DNA of 64,000 nucleotides from an uncultured Acidobacteriota bacterium (GTDB lineage Bacteria > Actinomycetota > Acidimicrobiia > Spongiisociales > ZC4RG35): positions 128,259 to 192,258 of the forward strand of contig CAWENM010000003.1 in NCBI GenBank assembly GCA_963810465.1, written 5' to 3'. The position numbers were made by a program, and so were the translations under genes. How positions within the stretch are numbered: the stretch's first letter is position 1; every line of letters begins with the position of its first letter. The notes under the pieces were generated by a model. That model was given only the letters and a program-made list of their open reading frames with translations. It searched no databases and had not been told where the DNA came from. Of the stretch, positions 9,949 to 38,820 are shown in pieces.

Positions 9949-10206
9949 TTACGAACTGGTAGTGACTCGCTTGGCGAGTCGCGACTTTTTCCGGGCGGCG
10001 GCCTTCTTGTGGAGCACGCCCTTCGACACCGCGGTGTCGATCTTCGCCTGTGCCTGACGGAGCAATTCGTCGGTGGGCTCGCCTGCGGCAGCAGCCGTCT
10101 CCACCTTCTTGACGCTCGTCTTCAGGTTGGAATTGATCGACTTGTTTCGCATCCGCCGATTCTCGTTTTGGCGGTTCCGCTTGATCTGTGACTTGATGTT
10201 GGCCAT
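9949..10206 (-). CDS. rpsT: 30S ribosomal protein S20
   Basis: 85 aa: [23 protein letters not shown]...[12 protein letters not shown]. Confidence 0.95.
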
Positions 10207-29801: not shown

Positions 29802-29874
29802 TCCGCGGTAGCTCAATTGGTAGAGCAGTGGACTGTTAATCCATTGGTTGTAGGTTCGAGTCCTACCCGCGGAG
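29802..29874 (+). tRNA. tRNA-Asn (anticodon GUU)
   Basis: Cloverleaf read by hand. Acceptor TCCGCGG/CCGCGGA, D-arm GCTC/GAGC, anticodon loop CTGTTAA, T-arm GTAGG TTCGAGT CCTAC, discriminator G. CCA not encoded. Confidence 0.93.
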
Positions 29875-34335: not shown

Positions 34336-34366
34336 ACAAAGTTCCGAAGAAAACCCCCGTTCTGGT

Positions 34367-34394
34367 TTGACGGCTGGATGAGTTTGGGTATAGT
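34367..34394 (+). promoter_or_regulatory. sigma-70-type promoter, module copy 1: TTGACG-N16-TATAGT
   Basis: Near-consensus -35/-10 with 16-nt spacing. Conserved in the second module 498 bp downstream. Confidence 0.55.
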
Positions 34395-34400
34395 TCCGAT

Positions 34401-34860
34401 CTGAAGCCCCGACGGGTCAGAAACTTCGGTTTCAGACTTGTTGGGGCTTCTTATATGCGGTCGTCGAGAAGAGGGACACCGGCGATGGCGGTCTCAGCCT
34501 TCGACGCTGATAGAGGGCTCGTCGCAAGGTCCGCCGATTTCGAACCCGACGCCGCGAACCCCTCACAAGGGGATCCAGGGTCGAAGGACCGACAGAACCA
34601 AAACGATCAGCCATCTCTCGCTCAAGCTACGAGTGGTAGGTGAACCGACTGCCTCGTCCCGGTTATCGGTGCGTGAATCGAACGCGAAACCGGGGACGAG
34701 TCCGGAGCCCTCCGAGCGTGGCGAGGACTCCGGTCACGTCCGTCTCAGCAAGGCGGGAGGAGTTGCCTTGGATCCTGAGCGTGGCGTCGTGACATGACAC
34801 CGAGGTTTCCGTCAGCCAGCAGGCAAGTGAAGATCGCCCGCGAAAGTTTTCGGAGTTCCT
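34401..34860 (+). ncRNA. candidate structured noncoding transcript / riboswitch-like leader A
   Basis: The first 48 nt form a conserved 8-bp stem enclosing a GAAAC-UUCG-GUUUC tetraloop hairpin, followed by about 400 nt with multiple strong stem-loops and no credible ORF. Motifs: GGGGAUCCA, GUGAAUCG, CCGGGGAC, GAGUCCGGAG. See findings. Confidence 0.3.
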
Positions 34861-34864
34861 CGGT

Positions 34865-34892
34865 TTGACGGATCCACGACATTGGGTATAGT
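34865..34892 (+). promoter_or_regulatory. sigma-70-type promoter, module copy 2: TTGACG-N16-TATAGT
   Basis: Same -35, spacer length and -10 as copy 1. Confidence 0.55.
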
Positions 34893-34898
34893 TCCGAT

Positions 34899-35210
34899 CT
34901 GAAGCCCCGACGGGTCGAAACTTCGGTTTCTGACTTGTTGGGGCTTCTTATTTGTCTCTCCCTCTCAAGTTCGAGAGGCTGGACTGCCGATAGGGGGAGA
35001 CGTTGGAGTGGAAGGGGGAGCCGAGAGGGCCCTCCAACATTGTCGCCCTCCGGGTGCCACCATCGCCCGGGGGTCGGCGCGCCCGACTGGCGCGATGAAG
35101 TCCAGCTAGGACCCGAATACCTGCCATCCTGTCCCATTCACGGCCTGGTGTTACGAGGCACATAGCTGTCTCGCCACACACCGCAACTAGGTCGACCAAC
35201 AACATCGAGC
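34899..35210 (+). ncRNA. candidate structured 5' leader B upstream of the M23 peptidase (riboswitch-like; possibly ydaO/c-di-AMP class)
   Basis: Same conserved 5' stem-loop as leader A (compensatory change in the inner stem), then about 260 nt of GC-rich structured leader with GGGGGAGCCGA and GGACCCGAAUACC motifs, ending at the ATG of the M23 peptidase. Confidence 0.3.
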
Positions 35211-36383
35211 ATGCACCGAACCCACCCAGCGAACAGAGAACGTCCCAAGCCCTGGCGCACCCTTGTCGTGGTCGCGACTCTGTCCGCAGTGTTGACGGCG
35301 AGTCTCGCCACCGGCACGGCCCTGGCGATATCTCGGGCGGAAGTAGACGAGGCATGCGCCGATTCCCAAGAGGCATACGACATCTATCGCTCCGCTCGTT
35401 CCGATTTCGAGGTGGCCGCGGTGGCGCTCGAGGAGGCAAACGCGGAGCTCGACGCTGCGGAATATCAGGAACAGCGAATCCGCAACGCCTACGAGGCACG
35501 CCAGGAGGAAAAGGCGGAGCTGTCGACCCGGGTCGAGTCACAGGCTGTCGAGCTCTACATGCAGGCCGCTTCCGGTCCCTCGATGGGGATGGTCAGCCTG
35601 TCCTCTCCCAGTGAAGCATTGACCGCCTACGAGTTTCTCCGGGCGAACGCCGACCAGAGCATGCAATCGGTGAACGACCTGGCCGCTATCTCCTCAGAGC
35701 TGGACCGACTTGGGGTCACGCTCGAGGCAGCTGTCGCAGAACTGACCACGGCGCGGGATGTGCAGCAACAGCAAACCGCTGACCAAGAGGCTGCGATGAC
35801 TTCTGCGTTGGGCGCATATGACGACCTGAGCGACAGATGCAAGGAACTGCAGGCCGCCTACGAAGCCGAACAGGCCCGTCTCCGAGCCGAGGCGGAAGAG
35901 AGAGCACGACAGCGTGCGGCAGCGGCGGCGTCCAGGGGCGGATCAGGCGATTCAGGAAGTGGTTCCACGGGCCCGATCATCGGCGGCATCATCTGCCCGT
36001 TCAGCCCGGGCCGTACGCATTTCAGCAACTCCTGGGGCGCCGGGCGTTCGGGTGGCAGGGCTCACAAAGGGACTGACATGATGGCTCCATTCGACGAGCC
36101 CATCTACGCCGTGGCCAACGGGACGATCAGCACCGGGAGCAGCGGACTCGGCGGCAAGACGATCTGGCTCTCGACTGGAGGGGTGGCCTTCTACTACGCC
36201 CATCTGAGCGGGTTCGCAGTGGGGGATGGCGCCTCGGTGAGTCAGGGTGACCTGATCGCATACAACGGCAACACCGGCAATGCGTCCGGCGGAGCCCCAC
36301 ACCTTCATTTCGAGATCCATCCGGGTGGACGGGGCTCGAGCGCGGTGAATCCCTACAACGCAGTGGCCTCGGTCTGCTTCTGA
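35211..36383 (+). CDS. M23 (LytM) family peptidoglycan metalloendopeptidase with N-terminal signal peptide and long coiled-coil
   Basis: Signal peptide, about 220 aa of coiled-coil, C-terminal M23 domain (HKGTDMMAP...HLHFEIH). Confidence 0.9.
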
Positions 36384-36397
36384 GCCGGGTCTAGCTC

Positions 36398-36586
36398 CTA
36401 TTTCCGGCGTGCCCTGCGCCACAGAACCGCTCCACTGGCCAGAACCGCGACAGCACCGAGCACCACCCACAAAGGGTCGCCGGTCATGAAGCTCTGTGGG
36501 GCGAAGGCGACGTCGAGACCCTGCAGGATCCAGATGACCCCGACGATGCCGAGGATGATCCCCAGCGCCATGCTCAAGTCCCGCAT
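36398..36586 (-). CDS. small membrane protein (two TM helices)
   Basis: ATG MRDLSMALGIILGIVGVIWILQG...VLGAVAVLASGAVLWRRARRK. Shorter than the 87-aa track ORF. Confidence 0.45.
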   Translation of the reverse strand: MRDLSMALGIILGIVGVIWILQGLDVAFAPQSFMTGDPLWVVLGAVAVLASGAVLWRRARRK

Positions 36587-36601
36587 CGCTCGAACATAGC
36601 T

Positions 36602-36631
36602 CTTGACTTCGACCGGTGCTTCAGCTGATAA
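36602..36631 (+). promoter_or_regulatory. promoter for Phe leader peptide: TTGACT-N18-GATAAT, near-leaderless
   Basis: Read from the sequence. The leader ATG lies about 11 nt after the -10. Confidence 0.4.
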
Positions 36632-36641
36632 TCTCGATCCA

Positions 36642-36716
36642 CATGAAGACGAGCCCAACACCGATCACGAGCGCCACGCCTCGGCGCTTCTTCGGGTTCG
36701 TCTATTTCGGCGCCTA
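36642..36716 (+). CDS. Phe-rich leader peptide (pheL-like): MKTSPTPITSATPRRFFGFVYFGA
   Basis: 24 codons, 4 Phe plus Tyr within the last 9 residues. Sits 70 nt upstream of a chorismate mutase/prephenate dehydratase gene. Not in the ORF track (<60 aa). Confidence 0.6.
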
Positions 36717-36779
36717 GCGCCGACTCACCCCACCCCCGCGTTACTCCGTCCCTATCCACTCTTCAACCGCGCCGAGGCG
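36676..36779 (+). promoter_or_regulatory. long-range 11-bp perfect stem (CGCCTCGGCGC 36676-36686 with GCGCCGAGGCG 36769-36779) sequestering the SD (GAGG 36774-36777) of the downstream fusion gene
   Basis: Exact reverse complementarity read from the sequence. The 5' arm lies immediately upstream of the Phe codon run inside the leader ORF. Confidence 0.45.
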
Positions 36780-36786
36780 ACCACCC

Positions 36787-38820
36787 ATGAATGACAAGTC
36801 CGATTCGAATCCAGGTGACATCGAACAGATCCGAGACGATATAGACCGGATCGACGCCGACATCCTCAAACTCCTTGCCGAGCGGAAAGCCCACAGTCTC
36901 CGCATTGCCAAGGAGAAGGGGATCCACGACCGCCCGTCCCGGGACCAGTCGAGAGAAGAGGGCCTCATCTCCGACCGTATTGCGGCCGGGATGGAGCACG
37001 ATCTCGACTCGGGTCTGGTGAACCGGGTGTGGCGGGAGATCGTCAACGACTCGGTGCGGATCCAGCAGGAGTATCTCGGACGTGCCGAGCGACCCCGTCA
37101 GACAATGACGGTGGCCATCCAGGGGATCGAGGGCTCGTACAGCCAGCTCGCATCCCAGCAGTTCTTCGACCACAAGGGGATGTCGGTCAACTACCTGCGC
37201 GCCCCGACCTTCGCCGCGGCCATCGGTGCCGTGCAGAGACTGGATGCCGATGTGGCCGTCCTCCCCATTGAGAACACGACCTCGGGTGCCATCTCGGAGG
37301 TCTACGACCTGTTGTTGGAGAGCAGGCTTCACTTCGTCGGTGACGTTCGTTTTCGGATCCGTCATTGTCTCCTCGGCATCGAGGGCGCCTCGATCTCCGA
37401 GCTACGTCGCATCTACTGCCATCCCCAGGCAGTCGCCCAGTGCACCGAGTTCCTTGCTCAGCTCGACCATTGCGAGATCGTCTACTTCTCTGATACCGCC
37501 CTGTCCGGGCAGAAGATCCGTGAGCTGGGAGACCCGACGATCGCCGCCATCGCCAGCGAGGAGGCGGCGCGTCTATTCGGCCTCGATGTGCTGAAGACGG
37601 GTATCGCCAACAGGGACGAGAACTTCACGCGGTTCGTAGTGGTCGCCGCCGAGCCTGCCGAGGTTCCAGACGGGGTGGCATCGAAGACATCGATCGTGAT
37701 GGCGGTGGGTAACCATCCCGGAGCCCTCATGGACGCTTTGGCCGTGTTCCACGACGCCGACATCAACCTGGTCATGCTCGAGTCCCGGCCTATCCCGAAC
37801 AACCCGCGGGAGGAGCTGTTCTATCTCGACTTCGACGGCAACGTCTCGGAGCCGGCAGTCCAGGCTGTGCTCGAGATACTCATGAGACAGGTCCGGTTTC
37901 TTCGGGTGCTGGGCAGCTATCCATCGAGAGACCTACGCCCCAAGCCGATCGAGCGGAAGATCAAGAAAGTGAAACCTCAAGGCCGTTCCACCCTCACCGA
38001 GTTGGCTCCGACCGCGGCCAGCCCCAAGGGCTACAAGCTGGGCAGCCGCGGTCACAAGGAGCACAACACAATTGTCGAGGTAGCCGGGGTCAGGATCGGG
38101 GGCGACGACCTCGTGGTTATCGCCGGGCCATGCGCCGTCGAGTCCTGGGACCAGGTGATGACTGCGGCCAAGGCGGTGAAGGAGAGTGGTGGGTCCATCC
38201 TCCGTGGGGGCTGTTTCAAGCCCCGGACCTCCCCGTACTCGTTCCAGGGTCTGGCCTACGAGGGTCTCGAGATGCTGGTCGAGGCCGGCAAGGCGTACGG
38301 CCTGCCCGTGGTCACCGAAGTGGTCTCGCCCGAAGACGTCGAAGGTGTGGCCCGCAAGGCCGACATCCTCCAGATCGGCACCAGGAACATGCAGAACTTC
38401 TCCCTGCTCTCAGCGGCGGGTCGGGCGCATCGCCCGGTCATGCTGAAGCGGGGGATGAGCTCGTCTCTCGACGAGCTATTGCAGGCGGCCGAATACATCC
38501 TCTCGGAAGGGAACCAGCAGGTGTTCCTCTGCGAGCGGGGCATCCGGACGTTCGAGACTTCGACTCGCAACACCCTGGACCTGAGCGCCGTGCCTGTGCT
38601 CCGCCAGCGGACCCATCTGCCGATCATCGTCGACCCGTCGCATGCGGCGGGAGATCGTGAGCTGGTTGCGCCGTTGGCGCTGGCCGCTCAGGCGATCGGC
38701 GCCCATGGGATCATGGTGGAGATCCATCCCGATCCGGACAATGCGCTCAGCGACGGTCCACAGTCACTTCGATTGGATCAATTCCAGGACCTGATGCTGG
38801 CCCTTGGCTTCGGGGGCTGA
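36787..38820 (+). CDS. trifunctional fusion: chorismate mutase (AroQ) - prephenate dehydratase - ACT - DAHP synthase (class I-beta / KDO8PS-like)
   Basis: 677 aa. N-terminal CM helix motif ([31 protein letters not shown]). PDT domain with TRF/ESRP motifs and ACT. C-terminal DAHPS I-beta ([37 protein letters not shown]). Confidence 0.9.

Follow-up and report, generated by a model that had tools for sequence, protein, structure and literature searches.

What controls a gene that fuses chorismate mutase, prephenate dehydratase, an ACT domain, and DAHP synthase (CM-PDT-ACT-DAHPS), and what is the role of the short, phenylalanine-rich open reading frame (ORF) that stands directly in front of it? 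We addressed this question for a locus in a 64,000-nucleotide stretch of contig CAWENM010000003.1 (assembly GCA_963810465.1), which is deposited under the title of an uncultured Acidobacteriota bacterium and is placed by GTDB in the class Acidimicrobiia. The whole 64-kb stretch is referred to below as the window, and coordinates are window positions on the + strand unless marked otherwise. On balance, and with modest confidence, we read the segment 36603-36786 as a ribosome-mediated attenuator that senses Phe and controls the fusion gene. That the leader allows the ribosome to sense Phe supply is very probable. Its read-out is probably translational, through masking of the Shine-Dalgarno (SD) sequence of the fusion gene, and is possibly reinforced by Rho.

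A Phe-rich leader ORF precedes the fusion gene

The leader ORF (36643..36717) comprises 24 codons, from the ATG at 36643 to the TAG stop at 36715-36717, and its product, MKTSPTPITSATPRRFFGFVYFGA, carries four Phe and one Tyr among its final nine residues. The candidate sensing codons are F16 (36688-90), F17 (36691-93), F19 (36697-99), Y21 (36703-05), and F22 (36706-08). Upstream lies a promoter-like site (36603..36634), in which a -35 hexamer, TTGACT (36603-08), is followed after N18 by a -10 hexamer that can be read either as GATAAT (36627-32) or as an overlapping TANNNT-type TAATCT (36629-34). TTGACT-N18-GATAAT is the sole promoter-like site in 36300-37000, where shuffled sequences lead one to expect 0.1, and the leader ATG starts ten bases past the -10 box. 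From this promoter geometry, transcription is predicted to start 0-4 nucleotides (nt) ahead of the leader ATG.

After a gap of 69 nt behind the leader stop, the fusion gene begins with the ATG at 36787 and extends to 38820 as a 677-aa ORF, in which Pfam identified the domains CM_2 (15-94), PDT (109-289), ACT (303-361), and DAHP_synth_1 (430-668). An earlier note on this DNA, made from the sequence alone, had described the 24-codon Phe-rich leader and the promoter, and we recovered both as described. It had also called the leader near-leaderless and the attenuation translational; in line with this, an SD is absent from all leaders of the family described below, and a scan of 36300-37000 found no terminator-like site. 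A cmscan of 35500-38000 against Rfam, with E up to 10, returned no leader family (Phe_leader included), no riboswitch, and no T-box, and the only match of a gathering-threshold scan of the whole window was a tRNA at 29802-29874. No further sensory small ORF (sORF) was found in the 64-kb window, where leuC is preceded by an overlapping gene and has no leader.

The leader is conserved and linked to a single gene

Relatives were collected by a scan with the fusion protein, taking one genome per species (79 loci), and by a metagenome scan with TAYTTYGGCGCCTAGCGCCGA, which gave 44 hits, 42 of them the same leader. Every Acidimicrobiia-type genome locus with upstream sequence carried an ORF of 19-27 codons located 57-84 nt before the fusion gene, and in all 39 metagenome leaders with enough downstream DNA the fusion gene followed 56-113 nt later. 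The linkage to the CM-PDT-DAHPS fusion was exclusive (57/57 Acidimicrobiia genome loci with the leader and 39/39 metagenome loci). The ORF, the promoter geometry, and a hairpin that spans the leader stop recurred in 57 genome and 42 metagenome loci.

Altogether, 90 distinct leader ORFs of 19-27 codons were obtained, always with the fusion gene, and every change in length among them is in frame. Phe and Tyr account for a mean of 5.0 of the final 10 residues in these ORFs, compared with 3.4% of the variable N-terminal part. The C-terminal YFGA is present in 81 of the 90, and the aromatic motif around it varies by clade (FFGFVYFGA, FGFAYFYFGA, FYFRGYFGA, GFAFSFGA, and FFGAVFFGA). In 57/57 loci, TTGAC[A/T/G] preceded the leader ATG by 35-40 nt, and 0/57 had an SD-like motif ahead of that ATG. 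The lack of an SD together with the fixed promoter spacing therefore suggests that the leader transcript is leaderless or nearly so, with leaderless initiation of the leader ORF.

The close relatives are metagenome-assembled genomes (MAGs), most of them labelled Acidimicrobiia, but some titles among these records are discordant. MAGs whose fusion is 93-99% identical to that of the window (L001-L004, L006-L008, and L059) are titled 'uncultured Acidobacteriota bacterium', whereas equally close ones from other studies are titled Acidimicrobiia, and the 'Acidobacteriota' titles conflict with three independent studies. A few relatives at 72-75% identity (L028/L029 and L035) are titled Gammaproteobacteria or Boseongicola. 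These discordant MAG titles probably reflect mislabelled or contaminated bins.

An arm of the leader is complementary to the SD of the fusion gene

Within the window, an anti-SD arm, A (CGCCTCGGCGC, 36677..36687), whose 3′ end abuts the first Phe codon at 36688, is perfectly complementary over 11 bp to an SD box, D (GCGCCGAGGCG, 36769..36779). D holds the Shine-Dalgarno GAGG (36774-77), 9 nt before the fusion ATG, and the complementarity includes it. Every other perfect stem in 36640-36800 is shorter than A:D, and a length of 11 bp was reached by only 2 of 1000 dinucleotide shuffles. The earlier note had recognized this complementarity and had located the GAGG correctly, but it had set the 5′ arm at 36676-36686 instead of 36677-36687.

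Other local pairings involve the same segments. The GCGCCGA part of D is also complementary to the 5′ arm of the stop hairpin. A local hairpin, P1 (36669..36689), joins GAGCGCC (36669-75) to GGCGCTT (36683-89) across the loop ACGCCTC, with a probability of 0.74-0.98 and a stability of -11.5 kcal/mol; because its 3′ arm overlaps A, P1 and A:D are mutually exclusive. The 5-bp core of P1 is retained in 28 clade-1 sequences, with 2 compensatory pairs. Across 36669-36723 and 36769-36775, the GC pentamers comprise three copies of GCGCC (36671-75, 36717-21, and 36769-73) and two of GGCGC (36683-87 and 36709-13). This set permits at most two helices and always leaves one GCGCC unpaired; the identity of that copy would depend on ribosome position, and it is possibly the copy linked to the SD.

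Covarying stems and a C-rich tract are shared across the family

The earlier note missed two features of the leader RNA, namely a covarying stem, P0, that competes with A:D, and an invariant C-rich tract. P0 is formed by R1 (AGACGAGCCC, 36647..36656), which covers codons 2-5, and R2 (GGGTTCGTCT, 36694..36703), which covers G18-F19-V20 and the first base of Y21, with pair probabilities of 0.79-0.99 in the window RNA. Across 55 distinct sequences, 89% of cells were paired, compared with 28-52% when the 3′ partners were slid. Covariation was seen at pair 7:34 (AU 39, GC 13, UA 1) and at pair 10:31, which shows two swaps from A:U to U:A. At the peptide level, P0 leaves the trace Thr3/Val20, Ala3/Ala20, and Ser3/Asp20, a set of combinations that would be explicable by RNA pairing only. 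Clades with other sequences have analogous stems between the 5′ end and the aromatic codons, for example GCCGCG:CGCGGC, replaced in L049 by GUCGCG:CGCGAC. RNAalifold on all 57 sequences recovered the stop hairpin alone; as MAFFT misaligned the variable 5′ half, an anchored, concatenated alignment served to test P0.

The small hairpin that the earlier note had drawn across the leader stop is real, but it is longer than the note had stated. It has 7 bp (36707..36723), with TCGGCGC (36707-13) and GCGCCGA (36717-23) enclosing the loop CTA; the last base of the TAG stop, which otherwise lies in the loop, is the first of the 3′ arm. Its stability is -12.1 kcal/mol, and 98.5% of cells were paired in 57 sequences. 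Compensatory changes from C:G to U:A occur at two pairs, one of them alongside a TAG to TGA change of the stop, and loop variants such as GUAA are also found.

From within the 3′ arm of this hairpin to the edge of D runs a C-rich, G-poor spacer (36718..36768), with 55% C and 10% G over 51 nt compared with 31% and 33% for the window. No other 50-nt stretch of the 64-kb window, on either strand, has as strong a skew of C over G, and the 57 homologous spacers have means of 51% C and 14% G. Inside it, directly after the stop hairpin, lies a near-invariant box, CCCCACCCCCGC (36728-36739), of which no second copy with up to one mismatch was found in the window. The spacer is predicted to be single-stranded, with an unpaired probability of 0.78. 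Among non-coding features, the C-tract and the CCCCACCCCCGC box show the highest conservation over the clades as a whole, those without leader:SD complementarity included. The spacer is a candidate rut-like tract and would most plausibly serve Rho loading. A search for a partner of the C-tract covered the leader, the SD box, and the first part of the fusion ORF and gave only the 4-mers CGGG:CCCG and CGCG:CGCG, neither kept across clades. The C-tract was also considered as a complement of the GAGG and discarded, as the match is poor and contains an A-C mismatch.

Predicted effect of ribosome position on access to the SD

We folded the window RNA 36643-36806 with a 30-nt ribosome footprint masked, using the ViennaRNA thermodynamic model, in which kinetics and pseudoknots are ignored. 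With the A site at F16, F17, or F19, the probability of the A:D pairing, P(A:D), was 0, and the GAGG was unpaired with a probability of 0.60-0.71. With the A site at the leader stop, P(A:D) was 0.77 and the GAGG was unpaired at 0.16, in line with the claim of the earlier note that a ribosome reaching the stop lets the stem form. With an initiating ribosome on nt 1-18, the corresponding values were 0.99 and 0.00. The model thus predicts that a ribosome that opens P0 but does not cover 36677-87 would drive the SD into A:D, and that a stall at the first three Phe codons would free it. Across window-type relatives, accessibility of the SD core was 0.26-0.28 with the ribosome at the start or stop and 0.54-0.59 with the ribosome stalled. 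Wilcoxon P values for SD accessibility across clades are untrustworthy because the sequences are related.

Leader:SD pairing recurs in different forms

In the 28-sequence alignment of clade 1 (A2), the GGCGC:GCGCC core of A:D is retained, and ACGCGCCGAGGC in the SD region is kept in 24 of the 28, the exceptions being the outliers L028, L029, L031, and L045. An ACGCG(C/U)CC core is widespread. In the nearest subclade, whose leaders contain ..TPRRFFGF.., A:D is often the minimum free energy (MFE) structure.

Sister lineages form other duplexes. Their best leader:SD duplex, CGGGUUCGUCUAUUUCGGCGCC with CGCGCCGAGGCGAACCC, draws its leader side from the Phe codons themselves together with the 5′ arm of the stop hairpin and reaches up to -30 kcal/mol, a value found for example for GGGUUCGUCU..UCGGCGC : GCGCCGAGGCGAACCC. 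The segment equivalent to R2 pairs in these lineages with the SD region AGGCGAACCC. In L040/L041, (G/U)CCUCGGG-type segments pair with CCC(A)GAGG, and GCCUCGGG:CCCGAGGU is among the examples of leader:SD complementarity outside the nearest subclade. The ..RGYFGA clade has a 13-bp stem from codons 6-10, CCAUUCAGGACAC:GUGUCCUGAAUGG, in which GUGUCCUGAAUGG abuts GGAG. Judged from these predicted pairings, leader:SD complementarity is recurrent but not universal, and different sequences achieve it. In support of SD masking, the SD region pairs better with the part of the leader that lies under a Phe/Tyr-stalled ribosome in 77/86 sequences, a comparison in which length and composition were uncontrolled.

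Mechanism and alternative explanations

The analysis shows the elements and how far they are conserved, the covariation of P0 and the stop hairpin, the A:D complementarity, and the folding behaviour with ribosomes masked; leaderless initiation, the response to Phe, the pairing that acts in vivo, and any role of Rho are what we infer in the following mechanism. Transcription would begin at the AUG of the 24-codon leader or a few bases ahead of it, and the leader would therefore have no SD. When Phe-tRNA is plentiful, ribosomes would traverse the leader, and P0 would stay open for as long as a ribosome occupies the 5′ codons, the final aromatic codons, or the stop codon. With P0 open, the 36677-87 segment (GGCGC) would pair with the GCGCCGAGGCG box at 36769-79 and bury the GAGG, and the fusion would be poorly translated. 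When Phe-tRNA is scarce, a ribosome waiting with F16, F17, or F19 in its A site would cover 36677-87 and leave the SD open. The untranslated state would probably be reinforced by Rho loading on the C-rich single-stranded spacer, leading to polarity without an intrinsic terminator. Termination of untranslated transcripts would follow, as is known for translational riboswitches (PMC12360218).

Several results weigh against this mechanism, or at least against its extension to the whole family. The earlier note had tied its proposal to conservation in relatives, and this was found family-wide for the leader ORF, whereas the contiguous 11-bp A:D stem is confined to the nearest subclade; of its 11 pairs, 3 are lost in 10-16 of the 27 clade-1 sequences, with no compensating change on the SD side. 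Leader:SD duplexes were no better than those of shuffles in the ..GFAYFYFGA and ..RGYFGA clades and in some others. The folding results also cut both ways: the claim of the earlier note that a stalled ribosome frees the SD held for F16, F17, and F19 but failed for Y21 and F22, where P(A:D) was about 1, the GAGG was unpaired at 0.00, and the SD is predicted to close. Furthermore, the ribosome-free RNA gave a P(A:D) of 0.01 with the GAGG unpaired at 0.43, and its MFE of -44.5 kcal/mol (P0, P1, and the stop hairpin) compares with -42.4 kcal/mol for the best fold with A:D forced. Naked RNA is thus predicted to have its SD largely open, and repression would then need kinetics, continuous leader translation, or an unmodelled P0/A:D pseudoknot. 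Coexistence of P0 and A:D would be a pseudoknot of the kind that ViennaRNA cannot score, and by a rough energy sum it could be competitive. The effect of the ribosome mask was clear in the window type only, weaker in type II, and at most 0.1 in other clades. The counts given above overstate independence, as the sequences are related, and the MAFFT alignments of variable regions are imperfect. Finally, P0, the stop hairpin, and the invariance of the C-tract are unexplained by SD masking alone.

This last point is why we retain a substantial rival, which we nevertheless consider unlikely, in which Rho-dependent transcription attenuation is the primary read-out across the family. The C-tract would then serve as a rut site, the course of ribosomes over the leader would determine whether Rho halts RNA polymerase ahead of the fusion gene or early within it, P0 would limit the leader to one co-transcriptional pass, and the SD pairing would be secondary or incidental. 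It would account for the rank of the C-tract and the CCCCACCCCCGC box in conservation and fits the predicted single-strandedness of the tract, and closure of the 5′ end by P0 once the first pass is over would suit a one-shot, irreversible decision. It also agrees with the absence of an intrinsic terminator from 36300-37000, although the orthologous gene elsewhere has one, and with the finding that canonical terminators consisting of a hairpin and a U-tract are not enriched in the window (27 found in 1-60000, compared with about 26 expected from shuffles). Rho attenuators controlled by upstream ORFs (uORFs) are known from tnaC, mgtL, corL, speFL, and hisL (PMC12360218), and in Mycobacterium tuberculosis Rho-dependent, uORF-associated premature termination dominates (bioRxiv 10.1101/2022.06.01.494293). 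The difficulty lies in how Phe would be coupled to Rho. No leader segment was found that could pair with the C-tract and mask it, the only G-rich partners giving at most 4 bp; a Phe-stalled ribosome reaches only ~36721, short of the tract at 36728+, and with the ribosome at F22 or the stop the footprint falls short of the tract or takes in no more than its first few bases. Since neither a stalled ribosome nor an alternative fold was found to mask the tract, a purely Rho-based switch would have no mechanism for the correct sign. Shielding or restructuring does not explain how starvation would block Rho, except via translation of the fusion, which is the SD-masking mechanism itself. In addition, rut sites are usually not conserved in sequence, and an invariant 12-mer is atypical of them. 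A more speculative idea, which we hold to be doubtful, is that the Acidimicrobiia possess a distinct class of terminator-less attenuator. Here the leaderless sensory ORF would fold on its own codons through P0 and be read once, the stop hairpin and the CCCCACCCCCGC box would form a recognition module, for Rho or another C-tract factor, that converts ribosome position to an elongation decision, and SD pairing would be a lineage-specific add-on.

The two further explanations appear much weaker. It is scarcely credible that the locus is a classical pheL/pheA-type attenuator in which the stop hairpin, or another one, acts as a U-tract-less, 'I-shaped' intrinsic terminator. The stop hairpin is stable, GC-rich, universal, and covarying, ribosomes at F19-F22 would melt it, and orthologous genes in other phyla use classical attenuators, but it is followed by CUCACCCCACCCCC and not by a U-tract, the terminator scan finds nothing, and Phe_leader and all other Rfam leader models fail at E up to 10. 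Moreover, as the stop codon is part of the hairpin loop, a ribosome that reaches it would melt the hairpin as a stalled one does, and replete and starved states would be indistinguishable. An intrinsic-terminator mechanism was rejected on these grounds, the missing U-tract and the melting in both states. We also regard it as very improbable that there is no Phe sensor, and that a structured 5′ untranslated region bound by a protein or small molecule, or a functional micropeptide, leaves the Phe codons as a by-product of RNA constraints. The C-terminal codons are indeed conserved at the nucleotide level and overlap the stems, a situation in which peptide and RNA constraints are confounded, and the invariant C-tract could be a protein-binding site. 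However, the aromatic codons persist despite differing clade motifs, length changes are always in frame, and the N-terminal peptide is unconserved. The leader is linked to the Phe-pathway gene alone, unrelated Phe-rich leaders stand before the same gene elsewhere, and no Rfam riboswitch matches.

The fusion gene in other phyla

The four-domain fusion, with a type-I-beta DAHP synthase, was found at full length and 47-61% identity in MAGs labelled Ignavibacteria, Planctomycetota, Thermoanaerobaculia, and Vicinamibacteria (among L058-L079); its occurrence in several phyla indicates that the architecture is widespread and not lineage-specific. In Vicinamibacteria (L071, L076, and L078) and a Phycisphaerae MAG (L077), the fusion gene lies behind unrelated Phe-containing leaders, MNVAKSRGRFVFTCSHGAGGGVV and ..RRFFFGYFTAGGRSAMV, and behind each leader comes a GC hairpin plus U-tract for which an alternative antiterminator is evident. 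The presence of Phe leaders before the fusion in several phyla means that Phe-leader control of this gene is independently attested, having arisen or been kept in these phyla. As read from these sequences, the Acidimicrobiia differ from the other phyla in their predicted expression platform.

The layout at L076:2297-2490 and L077:2298-2476 is that of a classical attenuator: directly behind a promoter comes a short ORF containing F-V-F or FFFGYF, next a hairpin, and finally a terminator made of a GC stem and a U-tract. The terminators lie at 2445-2469 plus TTTTTGT in L077 and at about 2438-2478 in L076, and the fusion of L076 appears to start with the ATG at 2509, after GAGGAG.

Other features of the window

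Divergent from the leader, a gene at 36398-36586 (-) encodes a 62-aa predicted membrane protein (MRDLSMALGIILGIVG...) without a Pfam match, and its start is 17 nt from the leader -35 box. This gene and the leader share a 56-nt intergenic region, in which their divergent promoters probably overlap. Further upstream, two copies of a ~93-nt direct repeat (34364-34457 and 34862-34954, +) lie 498 nt apart and are 89-95% identical. Both open with an identical promoter-like TTGACG-16-TATAGT and are located upstream of an M23-peptidase ORF (35211-36383). They have no Rfam match and may represent a duplicated small RNA or 5′ leader. A few convincing terminators occur in the window, for example at 52191-52160 (-), 45505-45485 (-), and 9962-9982 (+).

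Comparison with known systems

The combination of a Phe-rich leader with a chorismate mutase/prephenate dehydratase or DAHP synthase gene is shared with Escherichia coli pheL-pheA and pheM-pheST (Rfam Phe_leader) and with Corynebacterium glutamicum, where the aroR leader (F-Y-F) precedes aroF (PMC11802643, PMC4046766). The logic, in which a stall at Phe codons raises downstream expression, would also be common to them. Those systems use a terminator and an antiterminator, whereas the locus described here has no terminator and no Rfam match, its leader lacks an SD, and the read-out is probably SD masking and/or Rho. For phenylalanine genes, a comparative survey published in 2005 found no conserved RNA element among the Actinobacteria available at the time (PMC1262725). 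The same work described the LEU element, a predicted structure that precedes leuA in actinobacteria and has its Leu codons paired directly with the SD (Seliverstov et al. 2005, PMC1262725). Pairing of regulatory codons with the SD and the lack of a classical terminator are common to both, and the two differ in amino acid and in fold, the LEU element being a pseudoknot.

With the uORF-Rho systems (tnaC-tnaA, mgtL-mgtA, corL-corA, and speFL-speF; PMC12360218), the locus shares a short ORF followed by a C-rich unstructured tract, the absence of an intrinsic terminator, and, by prediction, the use of ribosome position as the signal. In tnaC and speFL, a stall at the stop shields rut, following an inducer logic, and such shielding was not found here; in mgtL and corL, the stalled ribosome causes a refolding of the leader that hides rut or alters pausing, and no such refolding was found here either. 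The earlier note had called the design 'ermC-like', which is a loose description. In ermC and cat, a stalled ribosome in a leader ORF frees a sequestered SD, as is proposed here, but there the stall depends on a drug and the nascent peptide and acts through a rearrangement of a four-segment hairpin, whereas here it is predicted to depend on codon supply, with the ribosome directly covering the anti-SD.

The closest described design is that of the mycobacterial leaderless poly-Cys sORFs (Ms5788A; the 'Cys ribulon' of Canestrari et al.), in which stalled ribosomes unmask a downstream SD (bioRxiv 10.1101/834739). Both occur in Actinomycetota, both have a sensory ORF with a cluster of codons for the end product, which is the leaderless first cistron in mycobacteria and is predicted to be so here, and neither needs a terminator. 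In both, the codon-tract region pairs with the downstream SD region and a stalled ribosome blocks the duplex; in our case this pairing is present in the window and partly kept across the family, and its function is predicted. The differences are that Phe (plus Tyr) takes the place of Cys, with no sequence relationship between the two, that in the window the anti-SD directly precedes the codon run and is not part of it, and that P0, the hairpin with the stop in its loop, and the invariant C-tract are additions, none of which has been described for the Cys sORFs.

Taken together, the leader is a covarying family of ~90 sequences, without an Rfam match, in which an amino-acid leader peptide would control a biosynthetic gene in an uncultured actinobacterial class. 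It offers a natural comparison between a terminator-based Phe attenuator in Acidobacteriota and Planctomycetota and a terminator-less one in Acidimicrobiia, and this comparison could show swapping of expression platforms according to reliance on intrinsic or Rho termination. The C-tract and the stem between the 5′ end and the codons are the mutable elements by which SD masking, Rho, or both could be told apart.

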